Assembly: GCA_049319825.1 (NCBI GenBank)
Contig: JBMORT010000009.1
Span: forward strand, 67,349 to 131,348
DNA from: Patescibacteria group bacterium
Lineage (GTDB): Bacteria; Patescibacteriota; Patescibacteriia; UBA11705; DATKZF01
Reading direction: 5' to 3'
Length of the DNA: 64,000 nt
Part shown: piece by piece, positions 10,672 to 56,775 of the stretch
How positions within the stretch are numbered: position 1 is the first letter of the stretch
Layout of the letters: each line of letters begins with the position of its first letter
Program-made: the position numbers and the translations under genes
The notes under the pieces: generated by a model
What the model was told of the DNA's origin: nothing
Seen by the model: only the letters and a program-made list of their open reading frames with translations
The model's database searches: none

Positions 10672-11157
10672 ATGACCGATCAAACCGTGAAATCAACCGG
10701 CTGCTGCGAGCCATTTAATCCCCAGCCGTGGCAGGAAAAAGAAATTGTCTGGAAAGACAAAATTTTCGTAAAAGATCATGTGACCAATATTTTTCACATT
10801 CCGATCAACATGGGGAAGAAAGTCGTTAAAAACATGAAATTGATTGAGAAAGCGGGCGCAAAAACTTCATATCAGCTGATGCTGGTGGATGAGAAATCGT
10901 CTTGGGGGTCGGATATATATATTGATGTGGCCAAAGACGTTCCCGGCGCCGAGATGTCCAAGCTTTCCGGCACGTTTTTAACCAAAGTTTTCGAAGGGCC
11001 TTATCAGAATGCCGGCCAGTGGGCGAAAGAAATGGAAAGCTATGTAAAAAGCAAAGGCAAAGAGTTGAAGAAAATATATTTTTCATATACGACCTGTCCC
11101 AAATGCGCCAAAGCGTACGGCAAGAATTACGTGATATTGTTCGCTCAAATCAGTTAA
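10672..11157 (+). CDS. hypothetical protein
   Basis: ORF only; C-terminal CPKC pair; no recognisable family. Confidence 0.45.
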   Translation: MTDQTVKSTGCCEPFNPQPWQEKEIVWKDKIFVKDHVTNIFHIPINMGKKVVKNMKLIEKAGAKTSYQLMLVDEKSSWGSDIYIDVAKDVPGAEMSKLSGTFLTKVFEGPYQNAGQWAKEMESYVKSKGKELKKIYFSYTTCPKCAKAYGKNYVILFAQIS

Positions 11158-11415
11158 AGGATGCGTATGTATCACCTTTGTATCCTCGAACGCGCTGATC
11201 GGACATTAAATACGGGCATTTTCATTGATTTGGAAAAAAGAATCAAGAGCATAATTCAATCGACCTTTGCGTCGAATACACGCGCGAACGCCGGCCAGTG
11301 AAATTGATTTTTTAAAAAAATTCCATGATCGATCGAGTGAGAGCCTCTAAAGAAGAGGCGGGGGTGAAGAAGATGTCGCGAGCGGAGAAGTTTAAGATGA
11401 TTTGAAATAAAAACA

Positions 11416-14836: not shown

Positions 14837-16657
14837 ATGAATAATATCCGAAATGTCGCCATCATCGCCCACGTTGACCATGGCAAAACCACTCTTGTTG
14901 ATGCCTTGCTGCGTCAGGCGAAAGTCAAGCTGAGCAAGGAAATTGCGGCGGCTGATTTGATAATGGACAGCAATGATTTGGAAAAAGAGCGCGGCATTAC
15001 CATCTTTTCAAAGAACGCTTCAGTGAATTGGAATGGCACGAAGATCAATATCATTGACACGCCCGGACACGCGGACTTTGGCGGGGAAGTCGAACGCGTG
15101 CTCAATATGGCCGACGGCTGTTTGCTGTTGGTTGATGCTAAAGAAGGACCAATGCCGCAAACGCGTTTTGTGCTGAAAAAAGCTTTGGCCATGAAGCATA
15201 AAATAATTGTGGTTATAAATAAAATCGATAAACCGGATGCTCGGCCGGCTTATGTGCTGGATAAAACAATGGATTTGTTCATCGAGTTGGGAGCCGATGA
15301 TCAGGCGCTGGATTTCCCGGTCGTTTACGCTGCAGCGAAAAAAGGTCTGGCCGGCGCCCAGCCTGATTTGAAGGCCATGAAGGACATCGTGCCAATTTTC
15401 GAGGCGATCTTGAAAAACATTTCCGCGCCTGAAGGCGATGTTCAAAAACCTCTTCAAATATTAGTTTCCAATATCATCGGCGATAATTTTAAAGGCCGCA
15501 TCGCTATCGGCCGCGTCCATAACGGAGTAGTGAAGGCCGGCCAAGACATCATGCATATAAATCGTCAAGGTGAAATGAAAAAAAACCGTCTGGTGTCATT
15601 AATGACTTTTGATGGTCTATCGAGAAAGGAAGTTGATCAAGTCAGCGCCGGCGATATTGTGGCCGTGGCCGGTATTCCGGAAATCACTATCGGCGAGACT
15701 TTGGCCGACACCGCCAACCCGATAGCGTTGCCGGTTTTAAGCATTGATCAGCCGACGGTTAAAATGACTTTTATGGTCAATGATTCTCCATTTGCCGGCC
15801 AAGAAGGGCAGTATACCACGTCGCGGCAAGTGCGTGAGCGATTATATAAAGAACTGGAAAACGACATGGCGCTGAAGGTCGAAGATACCGATGACGGTAA
15901 ATGGACGGTTTCGGGCCGGGGCGAGCTTCATTTGTCAATTTTGATTGAAAGAATGCGGCGCGAAGGTTATGAATTTCAAGTATCACGGCCCCAAGTGATC
16001 AATAAAAAAGCGGATGGGAAAACATTGACTCCATTTGACCGTTTGTTTATCGAAGTCCCGGAAGCGCATTACGGATTGGTCGTTCAGAAATTAAACAGTA
16101 GAAAGGGCGAGCTCAAAGACATGAAAGTGATTGACGGCGTCGCTCACATCGAATACATCATCCCAACCAGAAGCTTATTCGGCTATCGCACCGAATTTTT
16201 AACCGATACGCGAGGCTTGGGCATCATTAATACCTCTTTTTACGATTATTTGCCCGACCCGGGAAATTGGAAGGAGCGGGAGCAGGGATCACTAGTCGCA
16301 CACGAAACCGGCACCACCAATCTTTACGGATTGGTGAATGTTCAATCGCGCGGGGTTTTGTTTTTTGGCCCCGGCGTCCCTGTTTATATGGGGCAGGTCG
16401 TCGGCCAGAATTCTCGTGGCGACGATATCCGAGTGAATGTCTGTAAGACCAAGCAACTGACCAACATGCGCTCAAAAGGAGACGGTCCGATGGAGCATTT
16501 TAACGTGCCGAAGGAAATGAGTCTGGAAGCGGCGATTGAATACATCGGCGATGACGAATTGGTGGAAGTGACGCCTGAAAACATCAGAATCAGAAAAATT
16601 TATCTCGACGAGCTGACCGCTAAAAGAGCAAGGTTTGCGGAAAAAGCGGAAGCTTGA
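14837..16657 (+). CDS. typA: translational GTPase TypA/BipA
   Basis: AHVDHGKTTL G1 motif, DTPGHADF, NKIDK; 606 aa. Confidence 0.95.
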   Translation: MNNIRNVAIIAHVDHGKTTLVDALLRQAKVKLSKEIAAADLIMDSNDLEKERGITIFSKNASVNWNGTKINIIDTPGHADFGGEVERVLNMADGCLLLVDAKEGPMPQTRFVLKKALAMKHKIIVVINKIDKPDARPAYVLDKTMDLFIELGADDQALDFPVVYAAAKKGLAGAQPDLKAMKDIVPIFEAILKNISAPEGDVQKPLQILVSNIIGDNFKGRIAIGRVHNGVVKAGQDIMHINRQGEMKKNRLVSLMTFDGLSRKEVDQVSAGDIVAVAGIPEITIGETLADTANPIALPVLSIDQPTVKMTFMVNDSPFAGQEGQYTTSRQVRERLYKELENDMALKVEDTDDGKWTVSGRGELHLSILIERMRREGYEFQVSRPQVINKKADGKTLTPFDRLFIEVPEAHYGLVVQKLNSRKGELKDMKVIDGVAHIEYIIPTRSLFGYRTEFLTDTRGLGIINTSFYDYLPDPGNWKEREQGSLVAHETGTTNLYGLVNVQSRGVLFFGPGVPVYMGQVVGQNSRGDDIRVNVCKTKQLTNMRSKGDGPMEHFNVPKEMSLEAAIEYIGDDELVEVTPENIRIRKIYLDELTAKRARFAEKAEA

Positions 16658-48865: not shown

Positions 48866-49675
48866 ATGACTGGGGCCAGGAAAGTGCCGTTTGCGCACCA
48901 AGACACCCAGCCTCCGGAAGAAATTTCAGCAGCGGCAGTGGAGGCTGGTGTGCGACACCGATCATCGAGACTTCTTGTTTTGGGACAAATCGCCTTTGAA
49001 GTGGCACATCAGCTCAATAATTGTCTCACCGGAATTTGTGGCGGCTTATATTGTTTGGAATCGGAAGCGGCAGATCCGCTTCTCAGGCAAGAATTGCGAT
49101 TTCTCAAGGAATCGGCTGAGAGAGCAATCAATTTGACTCAGGGAATCAATGAATTTGGACGGAAAAAAACGCAAACGTCAAAGCTGATTGACGTAAATGC
49201 GGTGATTTCCGATGTGATCAGATTTTTCCGGCAAATTTTCGCTGAATCAATAATGCTGAGCTATACGGTTGATGGCCAATTCACCATTTGGGCTGATCAA
49301 TGCCAGATCTTTGAAATGATGCTGAATATTTTGATCAACGCCTATGACGCTGTCCGGAATAATCAGGAAAAAAACAGGCAAATTTCGATTCATGTCAGCG
49401 CTTTGAGGCTGGAAAGAGGTTTGATTAATTCTCCCCGCAGTCGCGAAGGCAATTTTGTGAAAATTGCCATCTCGGATAATGGTTGCGGAATTTCAAAGGA
49501 AGATTTGCCTAAAATATTCGACGCATATTTTACCACCAAGGGAGATTTTGGTAGCGGGCTTGGCCTCAAAATCGTCAAAGAAATTATCGAGACTCATCAT
49601 GGCTGGATTGATGCGGAGAGCGATCCTGATGAGGGAACCACTTTTTCCGTGTTTTTCCCTGCGGAAATTCGATGA
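48866..49675 (+). CDS. cytoplasmic sensor histidine kinase (HisKA + HATPase_c, no sensor domain)
   Basis: H-box EVAHQLNNCLTGI; N, G1, G2 boxes (DNGCGI, GSGLGL); AAGGAGGG RBS. Confidence 0.85.
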   Translation: MTGARKVPFAHQDTQPPEEISAAAVEAGVRHRSSRLLVLGQIAFEVAHQLNNCLTGICGGLYCLESEAADPLLRQELRFLKESAERAINLTQGINEFGRKKTQTSKLIDVNAVISDVIRFFRQIFAESIMLSYTVDGQFTIWADQCQIFEMMLNILINAYDAVRNNQEKNRQISIHVSALRLERGLINSPRSREGNFVKIAISDNGCGISKEDLPKIFDAYFTTKGDFGSGLGLKIVKEIIETHHGWIDAESDPDEGTTFSVFFPAEIR

Positions 49676-49677
49676 AA

Positions 49678-49704
49678 GGTGTTTATTCAATAAACACCTT
49701 TTAT
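49678..49704 (+). terminator. hairpin/terminator between histidine kinase and HypF-like gene
   Basis: ggtgtttat-tca-ataaacacc 9-bp stem plus TTTTAT. Confidence 0.45.
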
Positions 49705-49716
49705 ATTTGGGTCAAT

Positions 49717-50886
49717 ATGCTAATATTTAAAGATATGAGGGAATATTCGCTAAATTTACCTCGGCAGTCGCGAGTTTTATGTTTGGGAGCGGAATCTGCC
49801 GGAAATTTTACCGTATATGAGAATGGTCAAGCTTATTTTTTTTCTGATTTTGGTGATTTGCTCGATGATAAAAATTTCAATGCATATCAAGAGGCATTGT
49901 TTGGATTTTTTGGAAAAAGAAATTTTGTGCCAGATGTTATTACTGTAGATTTGCACCCTGATTTTAAAACGTCAAAATTAGGCATGGAATTGGCTCAAAA
50001 ATTTGGTTGCAGACTTGAAAAAGTGCAGCACCATGCGGCGCATATCTATTCGGTGTTGTTTGACCATATTCGGGCTTCTCAAACTCAAACTCTGCCTCGA
50101 AATTTTGTTGGAATTGCAGGCGATGGTACAGGGTATGGTCTTGATGGGAAAATCTGGGGTGGAGAAGTGTTTTTATATAGGCAGGAGGCAATAGGTCAGC
50201 CTTCGCCTCATGGGCTTCGGCTGACAGGCAGTAGGCCAGAGGTGCGGATAGGACATTTGGAGAATCAATTGCTTTGTGGGGGAGATTTGGCCATTAAAGA
50301 ACCGGCCCGAATGCTTCTTTCCATACTTTTAGGTATAAAAAAGCCGGCAGAGCTCTGGCCCTTTTTTAGCGCATTTTATGCTGAACAACAGTTTAATGTT
50401 CTTGCAAAAATGCGTGAACAAAAATTTAATTCAGTCGAAACTTCGAGCACAGGCAGGGTACTTGATGCGGCTTCACTGCTGCTCGGATTTTGCGGCAATA
50501 AAAGAGCGTATAAACATGAGCCCATTGATTTATTGGAGAAAAATTCGACAGAACCATTCATTTTGAAACCTCAAATAGAAAAGCAAGATGAATACGTATT
50601 GAACACAACATGGCTGTTTCAATGGATGTTGGATAACTTGGATAAAGATAAGGGCAGATTGGCTGCTACAGTTCAGAAATATATTATTGAGGGTTTAATT
50701 GAAATTGCCGGAAAAGTGAATCCTGATTTGCCGATTTATTTTGGCGGCGGAATGGCTAATAATAAAATAATGAGCCAAATTGCCGAAGAAAATGGGGTAA
50801 TTATGGCTAAAAATATTGAAAGAGGGGATAATTCATTGAGTTTGGGGCAATTGATGTATTGCTTATGGTGTGACAAGCTTTCTTAG
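49717..50886 (+). CDS. stand-alone HypF C-terminal (Kae1/TsaD-like carbamoyltransferase) domain protein
   Basis: VLCLGAESAGNF (start of HypF Kae1-like domain), VQHHAAHI, GIAGDGTGYGLDGKIWGGEVF; lacks acylphosphatase, Zn-finger and YrdC domains. Confidence 0.65.
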   Translation: MLIFKDMREYSLNLPRQSRVLCLGAESAGNFTVYENGQAYFFSDFGDLLDDKNFNAYQEALFGFFGKRNFVPDVITVDLHPDFKTSKLGMELAQKFGCRLEKVQHHAAHIYSVLFDHIRASQTQTLPRNFVGIAGDGTGYGLDGKIWGGEVFLYRQEAIGQPSPHGLRLTGSRPEVRIGHLENQLLCGGDLAIKEPARMLLSILLGIKKPAELWPFFSAFYAEQQFNVLAKMREQKFNSVETSSTGRVLDAASLLLGFCGNKRAYKHEPIDLLEKNSTEPFILKPQIEKQDEYVLNTTWLFQWMLDNLDKDKGRLAATVQKYIIEGLIEIAGKVNPDLPIYFGGGMANNKIMSQIAEENGVIMAKNIERGDNSLSLGQLMYCLWCDKLS

Positions 50887-50999
50887 CACCGCGTCGAGCG
50901 CTACTCCGGTTTGTGGAGATAGTTACCAAAACCTCGGTAAAATCGCGCTATATGCGATTTTTTTATTATAAAAGCCGAAGAGCGATCTTCGGCTATGGA

Positions 51000-51480
51000 A
51001 GTGAGAGACACGCGGGTCCGCGTTTCAAACATCCCGATCTTCGTCTCCCAAACTTGATTCAAAGGATGCGGCGGACAACGACCGGATCATTAAAGACAGC
51101 ATTTTCATCGTCCGCCGCCAGGGGTGAGGGAAAACACGCTGGCAATCGTTTGCGACACCTCGTACTTCGTTTCCCCTCTTCACGGTTTACGATCGCGGAT
51201 CGTGTAGGAACACAAAATTTTGTGTTCCTACATGCCCGGCAAAGCCGGGCCAAACCGTGAAGAGGGGCCGAAGCGAGGTGCGCTTCGGCCGGAGGCAGAC
51301 AAAGGGTCGTACGTTAAATACAACTCCCCGTCCGTCTGCCTAAAGGAATTGGGAGACACATGAACACGCGTCGTCAAACAACCCACCCCTCGTCTCCCAA
51401 ACTTCATTCAAAGGATGCGGCGGACATCTACATCTTCGTGTTGAAACAGATCAAGATTCGTCCGCCGCCTCATTTTTATA
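51000..51480. repeat. GC-rich palindrome-dense element with two direct motif-plus-hairpin copies (possible IS200/IS605-derived non-autonomous element or structured ncRNA)
   Basis: tcgtctcccaaactt[g/c]attcaaaggatgcggcggaca at about 51040 and 51396, each followed by a GCGGCGGAC...GTCCGCCGC hairpin; central 15-bp stem (cccctcttcacggttt/aaaccgtgaagagggg) encloses three perfect hairpins. Confidence 0.4.
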
Positions 51481-52273: not shown

Positions 52274-52363
52274 AGTTCTATACTACGGATTGCTCCAAAT
52301 ACTACGACATGCTGAATATAAATTTGTTTTCGTAGTATTCGTAGATTTTTTGTAGATTCGTAG

Positions 52364-52579
52364 TTAACAAATCCTCGGAATCAATTTGCCTTTCGGCTCC
52401 TCAATCCTTCTTTCCGAACCAAGCATTGTCTTCAAAAAGACACCTTCGCCTTCAACGCATTTTCCAATAACTTTGGCTTCAGGATTAAATTCTTGAAGTT
52501 TTTTTAACGCTTCATCAGTGTTTTCCGGACTGACCGCGGCGATAATGATTGCTAAAATGACGATGATTGGGATTAACAA
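52364..52579 (-). pseudogene. duplicated 3' fragment of hypE
   Basis: encodes ...AVSPENTDEALKKLQEFNPEAKVIGKC..GEGVFLKTMLGSERRIEEPKGKLIPRIC, near-identical to the C-terminus of hypE at 54219-55187. Confidence 0.6.
52371..52545. repeat. ~175-bp direct repeat, copy 1 (hypE 3' end)
   Basis: near-identical to 54226-54400 apart from a 9-nt divergent patch. Confidence 0.8.
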
Positions 52580-52595
52580 TTTGTTTTTCTTAGTA

Positions 52596-53303
52596 TTATT
52601 TAATTATATAGATGACATGTCGCATACTTATAATGCATTTGTTGCCGCCGCATTTGGTTGTCAGATCATTAATTATTTTTTGTTTATTTTCTTGATAGAA
52701 TTTTCTTTGTCCTGGGTGCTGAAAAAAGAATTTCAAAATTTCATACATTTCCAGCTCGTCTTTGGCGAAAATTTGCGAAATAAATTTCTTTTCTTTGTGA
52801 TTAAATTTGTTTCTTGATAAATAATCAAACATTTCAGGATACCCGCTGTATTTTTTTACTTTGGTATTGAAATTAAAAAACGGATTATCATGCTTATTTT
52901 TTGAATATTCATCAATGATAACTATCATTCCGTCGGGATTGAGAAAAGATTTCGCTTTTTTAAAAAATGAATCCCATTTTTCATAAGGAATTTCCCATAA
53001 AACATATGCGGCTAAAATAATATCGAATTTTTCCTTAGCTTCAAATTTCAGAAAGTCATTTTTGATGAATTTTACTTTTGAATTCTTTTTAATTTCATCC
53101 TTTAATCTGTCTTCGATGTCAAGCAAGAGGATTCTTTTGAAATTAGAAATTATTGGCTGAATTATTTCTCCGGTACCGCAACCAATGTCCAAAATAGAAT
53201 CAAATTTTTGATTATTAAATAACCTTATTAGTTCGGATTTTATCATTTCTTTCTCGTTCGTGTGGGCAAGAAATTGGTTAAATAGGTCAGTATAATTTCG
53301 CAT
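52596..53303 (-). CDS. class I SAM-dependent methyltransferase
   Basis: ILDIGCGTGEI motif I. Confidence 0.75.
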   Translation of the reverse strand: MRNYTDLFNQFLAHTNEKEMIKSELIRLFNNQKFDSILDIGCGTGEIIQPIISNFKRILLLDIEDRLKDEIKKNSKVKFIKNDFLKFEAKEKFDIILAAYVLWEIPYEKWDSFFKKAKSFLNPDGMIVIIDEYSKNKHDNPFFNFNTKVKKYSGYPEMFDYLSRNKFNHKEKKFISQIFAKDELEMYEILKFFFQHPGQRKFYQENKQKIINDLTTKCGGNKCIISMRHVIYIIK

Positions 53304-53347
53304 AAAATTTCTAGCAAATACTAGGAATCAATTTTCCCTTCGGCTCT

Positions 53348-54178
53348 TTACTGTGTCGGTTGAGAAACGCGCTCAGGAATTTTACTTGTATATGCTGACG
53401 GCTCTTTATTAATGCATTGTTCTTTCATTGACTCACCGGCTGTGTCCGGCTCGTCAACCATGTCATCACAAAGCCATCTGGATGTCTTGCCTGTTTGTTT
53501 ATCATACATGGCATTCCAAATACATACATTTCTTTCTCTCTCCCAGCCATCGCCGTAATCAGCGCTGTTGATTTTAAGGCATGAAGTCTGGTTCTTAGTC
53601 CTTAAGACAATATCGCTGATGCAAAATTTAACCGATCTTGAATACTTTGAATGATCAGATTCGTCAGTTTGTATTTGGTAGCATTTCGTGACATCTAAAT
53701 TTGCCAACGCTTCGCATTTTATGTTTAAACTATTATATGGAATTTTGGCGCAGAAATTTGTGTCGGAATAAACTTCTGCCATATAGGTGCTACAATATGT
53801 CCCATCAATATCCGAAATTTTATATAAAGATTCGCATGCCACTTTGTCATTTGTGTTTTGATAGTACTTGATCAAGCAATCCGTCCTGGGATATATATTT
53901 GTAATGCTATCATCTTCCCATATGATTTTCGGGTGATACTCGCATTTTTCATCTTCGCAAAAATAATAGGTTGTTTCAATTGGTAATTCTTCGCAGATAC
54001 TTACGTCATGAGCCGCTATCGCTTGCGCGGCAGTTGAGTCCATTAAATTAGTAATTTCTTCACTGGAGTATTCAGGCCGAGTTTTTACGGAGTCTCTCAC
54101 ATTGGGCATGGGAGAAGAACAACTGGATAAAAAAAATGTGATTAAAATTAAAAATATTAATGTTGAAAAAAATTTCAT
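53348..54178 (-). CDS. Cys-rich secreted lipoprotein
   Basis: lipobox LSSC; about 18 Cys in the mature part. Confidence 0.6.
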   Translation of the reverse strand: MKFFSTLIFLILITFFLSSCSSPMPNVRDSVKTRPEYSSEEITNLMDSTAAQAIAAHDVSICEELPIETTYYFCEDEKCEYHPKIIWEDDSITNIYPRTDCLIKYYQNTNDKVACESLYKISDIDGTYCSTYMAEVYSDTNFCAKIPYNSLNIKCEALANLDVTKCYQIQTDESDHSKYSRSVKFCISDIVLRTKNQTSCLKINSADYGDGWERERNVCIWNAMYDKQTGKTSRWLCDDMVDEPDTAGESMKEQCINKEPSAYTSKIPERVSQPTQ

Positions 54179-54218
54179 AGGTTTTTTGATAATGATTTAT
54201 CTAAAAATTTCGACTCAA

Positions 54219-55187
54219 TCAACATATCCTCGGAATCAATTTGCCTTTCGGCTCCTCAATCCTTCTTTCCGAACCAAGCATTGTCTTCAAAAAGACACCT
54301 TCGCCCGGAGTGCATTTTCCAATAACTTTGGCTTCAGGATTAAATTCTTGAAGTTTTTTTAACGCTTCATCAGTGTTTTCCGGACTGACCGCGGCGATAA
54401 ATCGGCCTTCGGACGGTAGGGTAAATAAATCAATTCCCAAAAGCTCGGTTAAGGCGACGACTTCTTTTTTATAAGGCAACGTTTCTTCATCCAAAATAAT
54501 TTTCACTTTTGATTTGTCGGCGATTTCATTCATGTTCGCGGCCACGCCTCCGCGCGTGGGATCCTTGGCCGCGTTCAGCAGGTGCCCGACTGCCTGGAAT
54601 TCTGCCAGAAGCGGCTGGCAGTCGCTTTTTAAATCAGTTTGATAATCAAAGCGATAGGCGAGAAGCGTTAAACCATGTTCGCCCAAATCTCCTGATGTAA
54701 TGATATTATCGCCGACTTTGGCGCCGCCATTGTCTATAACTTTTTCAACCAATCCGATGCCGGCCGTGGTTATTTCTATTTTATCAAGTTTGCCTTTTTC
54801 CGTCACTTTGGTGTCGCCGGTAACGATAGGAATATTGGTGTGTTTTGAAACTTTATCAATTGATTCTGCGATTTTGAAAAGGTCTTTTTTGGCAAAGCCT
54901 TCTTCAATGACAATGCTTAAAGACAGGCCAAGCGGCTTGGCGCCCATGACGACTAAATCATTGATCGTGCCGCAAGTGGCGATTTTCCCAATATCGCCGC
55001 CCGGAAAAAATATCGGATCAACTATAAAAGCATCAGTGGTGAAAACGAGCTTTTGATTTCCCAGATCATAAATCGCGCCATCATCTTCTGTGTTGGTCCA
55101 ATTTGATTTGAGATTAATTATTTGGCGAAGCTGGCGGATAAGTTCGTTATTTTTGAATCCGCCGCCGCCGTGGTCGAGTTCGATCAT
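54219..55187 (-). CDS. hypE: hydrogenase maturation protein HypE (carbamoyl dehydratase)
   Basis: AIR-synthase-like fold; N-terminal MIELDHGGGG; C-terminal ...KGKLIPRIC with the terminal Cys. Confidence 0.9.
   Translation of the reverse strand: MIELDHGGGGFKNNELIRQLRQIINLKSNWTNTEDDGAIYDLGNQKLVFTTDAFIVDPIFFPGGDIGKIATCGTINDLVVMGAKPLGLSLSIVIEEGFAKKDLFKIAESIDKVSKHTNIPIVTGDTKVTEKGKLDKIEITTAGIGLVEKVIDNGGAKVGDNIITSGDLGEHGLTLLAYRFDYQTDLKSDCQPLLAEFQAVGHLLNAAKDPTRGGVAANMNEIADKSKVKIILDEETLPYKKEVVALTELLGIDLFTLPSEGRFIAAVSPENTDEALKKLQEFNPEAKVIGKCTPGEGVFLKTMLGSERRIEEPKGKLIPRIC
54226..54400. repeat. ~175-bp direct repeat, copy 2 (authentic hypE 3' end)
   Basis: see copy 1. Confidence 0.8.
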
Positions 55188-56275: not shown

Positions 56276-56775
56276 GCGTTAATTTGCGTTATACGAGTGT
56301 TATATGGCGTTATAAAGCGTTGATTTGTATTATTTGGTGGCATTTTTAAGTCTGTTTAATACAACGTTTATTAATCCATTTAAAATTGACTGGACCTTAT
56401 TTGCTTGAAACATGTAATCATCAAATGTATCTTTGTCAATATAACTGACTCTGTAACCAATATGCAGGTCATTTATAACTTCATTCAAACAACCTTTGGC
56501 GATTCCATAAAATCTTAAATTTTCTTTATAGAAATACCTGCCGAATCCTTCCGCAATGTTCGCGCCAACTCCACGCGCGCTTTCGCGCAGATGCTTTACC
56601 AAATTGTATTTTTCCGATTCGGGAAGGGTATTTGTCAATTTGTAAATCATTTCGCAAAAAACCATTGATTCTCTCCACGCATCCAGATCTTCTATATTTT
56701 GTATTTTCATAAAATTAATAACTCGTTCCAACGCAATATAACATTTAAATAACGCCAAATAACGTCAAATAACGC
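56276..56775. mobile_element. 4HB-gene cassette flanked by inverted arrays of GCGTTAT/ATAACGC heptamers, inserted between hypD and hypC
   Basis: left flank gcgttaatttGCGTTATacgagtGTTATatgGCGTTATaaaGCGTTgattt; right flank aATAACAtttaaATAACGCcaaATAACGtcaaATAACGC (reverse-complement orientation). Confidence 0.35.
56330..56710 (-). CDS. four-helix-bundle protein
   Basis: MKIQNIEDLDAWRES...LRESARGVGANIAEGFGR signature; the ORF-track N-terminal extension reads through the flank repeat. Confidence 0.7.
   Translation of the reverse strand: MKIQNIEDLDAWRESMVFCEMIYKLTNTLPESEKYNLVKHLRESARGVGANIAEGFGRYFYKENLRFYGIAKGCLNEVINDLHIGYRVSYIDKDTFDDYMFQANKVQSILNGLINVVLNRLKNATK

Follow-up and report, generated by a model that had tools for sequence, protein, structure and literature searches.

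How did the end of a core gene come to stand twice in a Patescibacteria genome, with two cargo genes lodged between the copies? The question is raised by a 64,000-nucleotide stretch of DNA (contig JBMORT010000009.1, positions 67,349 to 131,348; hereafter the window) from a Patescibacteria metagenome-assembled genome (MAG) deposited at NCBI, in which the 3' end of hypE is repeated on the far side of a gene for a cysteine-rich lipoprotein and a gene for a class I S-adenosylmethionine (SAM) methyltransferase (locus tags in this region ACOZBH_04950 to ACOZBH_04965). A preliminary description of this DNA had proposed that a circular molecule integrated by recombination within the hypE 3' region, or that the insert is a cassette whose attachment site lies in hypE. 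In our assessment, which we hold with a probability of roughly 60%, the repeat is the scar of cargo exchange at a recombination hotspot, in which one homologous crossover was combined with one illegitimate joint at a microhomology, in two nested rounds.

The repeat copies and their junctions

The direct repeat comprises positions 52366-52545 (left copy) and 54221-54400 (right copy), both read on the minus strand, which are identical at 174/180 nucleotides (97%; repeat search and scripted count). Near-identical repeats of about 175 bp had been reported at 52371-52545 and 54226-54400, and this was borne out, 170/175 positions being identical, in one exact block of 80 nt and another of 89 nt; the homology proved to be 5 nt longer than first described, reaching through the stop codon. 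As the hypE 3' end matches the window in blastn with E=1e-82, the repeat is not a product of chance. The variable patch, given earlier as 9 nt, is in fact 6 nt long and holds five substitutions (52451-52456 / 54306-54311); on the minus strand, the left copy has GTTGAA (Val-Glu) there and the right copy ACTCCG (Thr-Pro). Two other differences between left and right are silent, namely ATT/ATA in the last isoleucine codon and TAA/TGA at the stop.

The right copy (Thr-Pro, ATA, TGA) represents the last ~59 codons of the functional hypE and, as had been stated, it alone runs on into the full gene (55187-54219, minus strand), which is intact, encodes 322 aa with the conserved ...PRIC terminus, scores 340 bits against TIGR02124 (cut-off 251.6) and contains the Pfam domains AIRS and AIRS_C. 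The left copy (Val-Glu, ATT, TAA) is a displaced hypE 3' end. The 71-aa chimeric open reading frame (ORF) that it had been said to create is present at 52579-52364 (minus strand); its AIRS_C match is weak and confined to residues 13-49. Composed of a transmembrane-helix remnant and the HypE C-terminus, it is probably a pseudo-ORF and is best treated as such in annotation.

For the comparisons, relative loci are numbered L001, L034-L039, L048, L049 and L051, and two Logan contigs of the run SRR32167788 are numbered L040 and L041. These independent contigs (k=31) are 100% identical to the window: L041 corresponds to window 54255-52516 and L040 to window 52400-41548, and both contigs break off after the first 30 nt of an exact repeat block. 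Since both inner junctions are reproduced in L041, and the outer junction of the left copy in L040, the junctions are real read-level sequences, and only the path through the repeat rests on the MAG assembler. The identity of the copies ends within a few nucleotides of the stop codon, where the right copy passes to the lipoprotein gene and the left copy to a TACGAA-containing flank of the type found in L034. A simple tandem (segmental) duplication was ruled out on the grounds that the two copies have different downstream sequences.

The left copy together with 45 nt past its stop (52545-52320) matches the hypE end and downstream flank of L034 with 89% identity over 227 nt, and the next 80 nt match the TACGAA units of L034 with 90-98%. 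Compared with L034 11058-11234, the flank is 94-98% identical to three tandem units and, across 87 nt, 90% identical to the last unit with its flank. Because its flank matches that of the L034 hypE, the left copy is a hypE terminus standing in its own native downstream context, which in the window comprises this flank, one TACGAA-type unit of 46 nt and then the start of a gene with an HExxH motif (52363-52274, minus strand).

The opposite end of the left copy lies within a truncated gene. In blastn, window 53305-52539 aligns to L001 12003-12772 with 72.9% identity over 770 nt; this alignment passes the methyltransferase stop, continues for 54 nt into a gene for a 241-aa membrane protein of L001 (12720-13445) and ends a few bases past the repeat boundary. 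In L001 the membrane-protein gene comes directly after the methyltransferase gene, and a 5' remnant of it occupies the same place in the window (52595-52546, minus strand), directly 3' of the methyltransferase stop. Within it, 30/40 nt are identical to the start of the L001 gene, a score that was reached by 0/5000 shuffles and 0/2966 real 60-nt windows of L001, and the encoded peptides are alike (KKNKLLIPIIVILAIIIA in the window, MRNKIFILIIIILLIIIAGG in L001). The remnant covers the first ~19 codons of the gene, with its start codon changed from ATG to AAG.

The switch from remnant to hypE falls within TTAT(C/T)GC(C/A)G, the L001 gene reading ...AATTATTGCAGG and hypE ...GATTTATCGCCGCGG, so that the microhomology TTAT(C/T)GC measures 4-9 nt, a length taken from the L001 ortholog. 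These data point to an illegitimate, microhomology-mediated fusion of a truncated neighbour gene to hypE codon ~264 as the nature of the left repeat boundary; as the fusion lies at a microhomology inside a truncated gene, this boundary is not an attachment site. Joints formed by homology-facilitated illegitimate recombination (HFIR) tend to be GC-rich, and CGCCGCGG is presumably among the most GC-rich segments towards the hypE 3' end.

A third hypE terminus, absent from the preliminary description, is located between the two cargo genes (53346-53311, minus strand). This relic of 36 nt encodes EPKGKLIPSIC followed by a stop and differs from the resident hypE terminus at 8 positions, 6 of them in sense codons and 2 within the stop, which is kept. 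All of the sense-codon differences (6/6) are at third positions, five being silent and one changing Arg to Ser; the chance probability of such a pattern is ~(1/3)^6 = 0.0014. Including ~15 nt of flank, the relic is 84.6% identical over 52 nt to the hypE end and flank of L035, and it is 86% identical over 37 nt to the L034 end. Changes at third positions only, together with the kept stop, indicate divergence in another lineage in which it still served as a functional hypE end; the relic is thus the end of another hypE allele, more diverged than the resident one, which evolved under coding constraint until it was displaced. Since a hypE relic stands between them, the lipoprotein and methyltransferase genes do not form one unit, and there were at least two nested events.

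The differences between the two 180-nt copies were also compared with the states found in relatives. At the patch, VE is present in L034, L036 and L039, FE in L035 and VQ in L001; the last isoleucine codon is ATT in L001, L034, L035, L036 and L051 and ATC in L039; the stop codon is TAA in L001, L035, L039 and L051 and TAG in L034 and L036. The left copy has the states common to close relatives at 3/3 variant sites, and TP, ATA and TGA of the right copy are unique among these. Decay after a duplication predicts derived states in the displaced copy, and because the opposite is seen, an allelic reading is favoured, according to which two alleles from closely related strains were brought together. 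With three mutational events as its basis, this argument is suggestive, not conclusive.

Gene content between hypE and hypF_C in related genomes

Searching genomes with HypE yielded 33 loci, which belong to Patescibacteria and to DPANN/methanogen archaea. Most Patescibacteria relatives show the gene order hypC, hypD, hypE and convergent hypF_C, and in many cases hypE and hypF_C end within 0-15 nt of each other; in L048 and L049, which represent the next-closest clade (75% identity), hypE and hypF_C as annotated overlap by 21 nt. In the genus-level ingroup (L001, L034-L039 and L051), whose HypE proteins share 84-90% aa identity with that of the window, the flanks are kept, with pgm, a 107-aa gene, hypC, hypD and hypE before the gap and hypF_C behind it. 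A histidine kinase gene follows hypF_C in 4/5 arrangements annotated that far.

The gap between hypE and hypF_C is filled differently from one ingroup genome to the next. In L001, it holds genes for a TPR protein, the methyltransferase and the 241-aa membrane protein, as well as four small genes. Five tandem 46-nt TACGAA units, a PD-(D/E)XK gene and a 57-aa gene are found in L034, a split UMPH-1 hydrolase and two small genes in L035, and five small genes, with small membrane proteins among the products, in L036-38. L039 carries a DUF7387 gene and a HicA toxin gene, and the gap of the closest relative, L051 (89.8%), contains a structured RNA-like element only and no protein gene. Altogether, the window and six distinct relatives (eight loci, hypE 84-90%) present seven different gap contents. 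As the flanks are conserved while the gene content differs in close relatives, and the outgroup sites are empty, the hypE/hypF_C boundary is, by these gene arrangements, a hotspot of horizontal gene transfer (HGT) bounded by core genes in this genus.

The cargo of the window itself is low in guanine-cytosine (GC) content (0.29-0.37, with 0.29 for the methyltransferase gene) compared to the hyp genes (0.44). The lipoprotein gene (54178-53348, minus strand) encodes 276 aa with the lipobox FLSS↓C, and its product is a predicted lipoprotein with 15 cysteines, not the ~18 counted earlier. It is an ORFan: among 5.8 billion proteins and at the sensitivity of the search tool, the sole match was the protein itself (ACOZBH_04965), and no Pfam, NCBIfam or PADLOC family was assigned. 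Exact-protein look-ups of hypE and of the lipoprotein (P0121) gave no record. The methyltransferase gene (53303-52596, minus strand; 235 aa) matches Pfam Methyltransf_25/23/31/11/12 and is 66% identical at the amino acid level to L001 12005-12718. No NCBIfam model reached its cut-off, NCBIfam and PADLOC searches giving generic methyltransferase matches only, and a metagenome scan with this protein found no relative. The preliminary description would have been refuted by related genomes holding both genes without the repeats, and the comparison goes part of this way: L001 has the methyltransferase gene among different neighbours and without the 175-nt repeat, and the lipoprotein gene is missing there.

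Additional pieces of hypE are rare. A self-blast of the hypE 3' end across L001-L039, leaving aside short weak matches (19-40 nt, E ≥ 2.7e-5), detected them only in the window, L001 and L036/L037, and duplication of the hypE end is therefore not general at hyp loci. A DNA-pattern scan of metagenomes with the genus-specific hypE terminus gave 4 loci, including L051, and none of them had an extra copy of the pattern.

Within hypE itself, a terminator-like hairpin of 10 pairs followed by T7 is situated antisense to the gene in the codons for LKKLQEFNPEA (54330-54355, plus strand), with a second copy in the left repeat copy (52475-52500, plus strand); transcription entering from the convergent side may be stopped there. 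The pieces downstream of hypE in L001 (13462-13496) and L036 (11348-11387) are 36-41 nt long and 88-89% identical to this hairpin. In L001 and L036/L037, a convergent 97/125-aa gene has its stop directly before them, which looks as though the hairpin had been kept as the terminator of that gene. We considered this piece as the core of an attachment site (att) and rejected it, as it is an antisense terminator-like hairpin with an A/T run that follows the stop of a convergent gene.

Probable cargo exchange and alternative origins

Under cargo exchange, two closely related haplotypes would have been joined. Haplotype A would have carried hypE, the lipoprotein gene, the old hypE relic, the methyltransferase gene and the gene for the 241-aa membrane protein; haplotype B would have carried hypE, the TACGAA flank, the HExxH gene, a structured RNA (see below) and hypF_C. 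One connection would be a homologous crossover in a conserved flank, either hypE or hypF_C, and the other an illegitimate joint at TTAT(C/T)GC leading from codon ~19 in the gene for the membrane protein into the haplotype B hypE at codon ~264. The product would possess the complete hypE and cargo of A, followed by the last 180 nt of the hypE of B and the native downstream DNA of B. This could be reached with two polarities: a fragment of A may have been anchored in hypD/hypE and its free end joined into the hypE of B, or a fragment of B may have been anchored in hypF_C and its hypE-side end joined into the 241-aa gene of A, with deletion of the rest of the A cargo. Either polarity would yield the observed structure, and the 36-nt relic would stem from an earlier event of the same kind that involved a more diverged hypE allele.

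No dedicated recombinase would be needed for these steps, which correspond to the expected outcome of HFIR with linear DNA that has been taken up. HFIR experiments mostly report insertion with deletion, the second polarity being the canonical outcome. Alternatively, a circle closed at the microhomology may have entered by a single Campbell-type crossover in the 180-nt homology, which would result in an equivalent structure. Of the integration proposed in the preliminary description, the insertion beside hypE and the displaced left terminus are supported, and the circle becomes one possible variant. The direction of transfer, the route of DNA uptake and the linear or circular form of the substrate are parts of this account that we infer. 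Selection could act as a filter in addition, since where convergent genes overlap, an insertion would have to regenerate the gene end if neither gene is to be damaged; such a filter may contribute to the repeated occurrence of hypE fossils.

HFIR with joints of 3-10 bp has been documented in three naturally transformable species, Acinetobacter baylyi, Streptococcus pneumoniae and Pseudomonas stutzeri (PMC6382021). In those cases, homology to a conserved gene anchors one end, the other is joined by a few bases of microhomology at whatever point within a gene these occur, and foreign genes are trapped beside the anchor without mobile-element enzymes. The locus described here likewise shows a joint of a few bp at an arbitrary position that truncates a gene, next to a homologous anchor (all relatives have hypD, hypE and hypF_C conserved on the two sides). 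It differs in that the process is read from a scar, and in that this scar includes a 180-nt duplicate of the end of the anchor gene. Saccharibacteria possess natural competence, and the com genes are conserved throughout the phyla of the candidate phyla radiation (CPR; PMC10633639). Patescibacteria undergo extensive HGT (PMC12455944).

In Campbell-type insertion-duplication, direct repeats that represent the homology of the circle flank the insert and allow it to pop out through homologous recombination. Here, too, one complete and one 5'-truncated copy of hypE flank the insert, whereas no circle or replicon is seen and the illegitimate joint between hypE and the 241-aa gene would be needed beforehand. 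The locus likewise resembles the HGT hotspots without mobile-element genes described by Oliveira et al. 2017 (PMC5635113), which have core flanks, varying cargo that is strain-specific or of unknown function, and no integrase or transposase. In contrast to double homologous recombination, which leaves no duplication, the illegitimate joint at the present site means that fossils of the flanking gene survive; moreover, the site lies between convergent genes that overlap in outgroup genomes.

Several points weigh against cargo exchange. The best hypE match among 5.8 billion proteins is 89% identical, and that of L051 89.8%, so there is no conspecific genome for comparison, and neither haplotype A nor haplotype B has been observed as such. 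For the microhomology, the source is the L001 ortholog, whose neighbouring methyltransferase is only 66% identical in amino acid sequence, and not the true parent. Insertion with deletion is what HFIR experiments mostly give, and the join here may, depending on its polarity, have duplicated resident sequence or simply have brought in the end of a donor hypE. Fragments of hypE out of place occur repeatedly, twice in the window and once as a piece common to L001 and L036, and such recurrence could also come from a targeted mechanism. Finally, transformation has been shown for Saccharibacteria only, not for the lineage of the window (PMC10633639).

Among the other explanations, a two-step origin within one genome would start from an older event that put a longer copy of the hypE 3' end beyond the methyltransferase and 241-aa genes; later, a microhomology deletion would have taken out most of the 241-aa gene, and gene conversion from the resident hypE would have held the copies at 97% identity. 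L001 has a hypE-like 36-nt piece 17 nt past the stop of its 241-aa gene, the microhomology junction suits a deletion as well as a join, and gene conversion is possible between direct repeats 1.7 kb apart. We nevertheless regard this course as unlikely, since it needs two or three events plus homogenisation, and since an ortholog of the L001 piece is present in L036/L037, where the methyltransferase and 241-aa genes are missing, the piece going with the convergent 97/125-aa gene in the form of a terminator-like hairpin. In addition, the sequence downstream of the left copy is native hypE flank of the L034 type and not the L001 context, and the derived states reside in the functional copy, not in the displaced one. 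It is very improbable that the structure is an artefact of assembly or of a mixed population, in which a chromosome running from hypE to the HExxH gene and a separate lipoprotein-methyltransferase molecule or strain were threaded together via the shared 180 nt. The Logan k=31 contigs do break 30 nt into the repeat blocks, and such a branching graph fits a linear path as well as a circle plus an empty site. However, both inner junctions (hypE stop to lipoprotein gene; methyltransferase gene through the remnant to hypE codon 264) are real read sequences, and the k-mers of any assembler greatly exceed the length of the microhomology at the junction. With the 6-nt patch 80-89 nt away from the repeat ends, ordinary reads or k ≥ ~100 can phase the copies, as the MAG assembly did, and a free circle of 1.9 kb would be without a replication function.

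A targeted origin would involve a site-specific cassette or a decayed integrative element that accreted in the manner of cis-mobilizable elements (CIMEs): an attP mimicking the hypE 3' end, a tyrosine or serine recombinase acting in trans and tandem stacking would have left att copies in the form of the hypE end and the pieces of 36 nt and 180 nt. Its appeal lies in the three co-oriented hypE termini, each ending at the stop and with cargo between them, in the hypE gene that stays intact after insertion, and in the further hypE fragment downstream of hypE in L001 and L036/37. This resembles the tandem accretion of ICEs (integrative and conjugative elements), IMEs (integrative and mobilizable elements) and CIMEs at the 3' end of a protein gene (e.g. 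fda in streptococci; PMC7563491), where co-oriented 3'-end copies enclose cargo and the target is left intact, although the window differs from it in having no integrase, relaxase or conserved att core, unequal copies, one boundary within a truncated unrelated gene, and cargo units of ~0.8 kb each. No integrase, transposase or relaxase was detected among the ORFs of the insert or those scanned within ~10 kb on either side (Pfam; precomputed annotation of L040), and no inverted repeats beyond chance bound the insert. The hypE fragments are unequal, comprising the complete gene, 36 nt (from codon ~312) and 180 nt (from codon ~264); the two copies start at unrelated positions, only the gene terminus is common to all three, and there is accordingly no common att core. 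The 180-nt copy begins inside the truncated neighbour gene at a microhomology. Furthermore, of ~45 hyp loci, only the window and the L001/L036 lineage have an extra hypE fragment; the piece in L001/L036 is a terminator-like hairpin after a convergent gene, which explains its retention; and the lipoprotein gene is found nowhere else. With no recombinase among the ORFs scanned, unequal fragments and a junction in a truncated gene, the attachment site in hypE suggested by the preliminary description finds no support, and we consider a site-specific origin improbable. Even less can be said for its boldest form, in which the hypE terminus would be a true attachment site where integrase-less, single-gene micro-cassettes of ~0.8-1 kb were stacked by a recombinase encoded elsewhere. 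If it were true, the three hypE termini and the hairpin piece of L001/L036 would be att remnants of a new cassette-accretion system.

Established classes of mobile element were rejected as well, enzyme genes having been sought among the ORFs of the insert and those scanned ~10 kb to either side. A site-specific integrative element (genomic island, ICE, IME or CIME) does not agree with the lack of a recombinase, of a shared att core and of recurrence at the site. For an integron gene cassette, bounding inverted repeats and intI are missing, and the repeats are coding hypE sequence. An insertion by a transposon or insertion sequence is contradicted by a duplication of 180 nt without terminal inverted repeats or a transposase.

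Surrounding genes and a candidate structured RNA

Upstream of hypE, the locus contains hypC (56985-56776), a gene of the 23S rRNA intervening-sequence protein (IVP) family encoding a four-helix bundle (56758-56330) and hypD (56275-55199), all on the minus strand. The position of IVP-family genes in the hyp cluster varies by genome: they are situated in the hypC/hypD gap, in the hypD/hypE gap or beyond hypF_C (window 56330-56758; L001 7969-8324 and 9451-9861; L036 9521-9934; L039 6298-6759 and 9913-10323). An L001 copy is frameshifted. In this respect, they behave like small nomadic genes.

Downstream of the left repeat copy, the HExxH-motif gene (52273-51548, minus strand) encodes a protein of 241 aa without a Pfam or NCBIfam family. 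Homologues with up to 58% identity occur in unrelated housekeeping neighbourhoods of other Patescibacteria, and the protein belongs to an uncharacterised Patescibacteria family. The idea that the gene is a regular neighbour of hypE was rejected because its homologues are placed in glycolysis/pentose-phosphate or murJ neighbourhoods.

The gap also contains a GC-rich element of ~450-500 nt in the orientation of hypE, which was found in the window (50973-51480, minus strand) and in L051 (4906-5350, minus strand). Its GC content is 0.53, compared to 0.43 for the genome, and its minimum free energy (MFE) relative to shuffled sequences corresponds to z = -11.1 in the window and -10.5 in L051. The two copies are homologous (nhmmer E = 1e-14), and their RNAalifold consensus has 57 pairs, 11 of which show compensatory double changes. 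The element ends in an intrinsic terminator, and the L051 copy is preceded by a promoter-like TTGACA-17-TGTGATAAA. In the window copy, the 3' domain of ~135 nt is duplicated internally (51345-51477 and 50997-51130). No Rfam family matched, and a covariance model (R1) of the 3' domain found no further copies in 41 other loci. Taken together, the folding predictions make this element a candidate for a new, unannotated structured RNA. A perfect palindrome of 28-32 nt, GTAGGAACACAAAAT(T/A)TTGTGTTCCTAC, was observed within the window RNA (51203-51235) and at an unrelated intergenic site of L001 (19385-19416). At both sites it forms one of three hairpins within a long closing stem, and this shared setting suggests a dispersed structured repeat family.

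Convergent to hypE, the gene at 49672-50886 (plus strand) was assigned to hypF by the Pfam domains HypF_C and HypF_C_2 and by synteny with relatives. It is the C-terminal, Kae1-like half alone (404 aa), and its start overlaps the stop of the histidine-kinase gene (48866-49675); no N-terminal HypF domains were seen at the hyp locus among the loci inspected in detail. Short repeats are found in this gene or in the hypE/hypF_C gap in several genomes. The TACGAA-rich unit of 46 nt (TACGAATCTACAAAAAATCTACGAATACTACGAAAACAAATTTTAA) occurs once in the window (52320-52367) and five times in tandem directly after the L034 hypE (10970-11190), and it could be an operator array or a minisatellite. TACGAA-like repeats are also present in frame within the hypF_C of L035 (13476-13559), and in the hypF_C of L001 an 8-nt periodic repeat (TGTTTCTC-like; 15331-15426) gives rise to a low-complexity insertion (ETEEQKNTKTEKQRNREIEKQ). 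Repeat expansions appear to be tolerated in the linker of the two Kae1-like subdomains of HypF in several genomes.

Considered as a whole, the locus is a well-preserved example of a known process and involves no new kind of element and no new principle. Its value lies in the scar, which shows at the resolution of single junctions how a streamlined Patescibacteria genome gains and loses accessory genes without the help of mobile-element enzymes, and which points to a homologous anchor in a core gene combined with a microhomology joint. Successive events are documented by the nested hypE remains of 36 nt and 180 nt, and the 180-nt direct repeats predict heterogeneity within the population through pop-out of the cargo.

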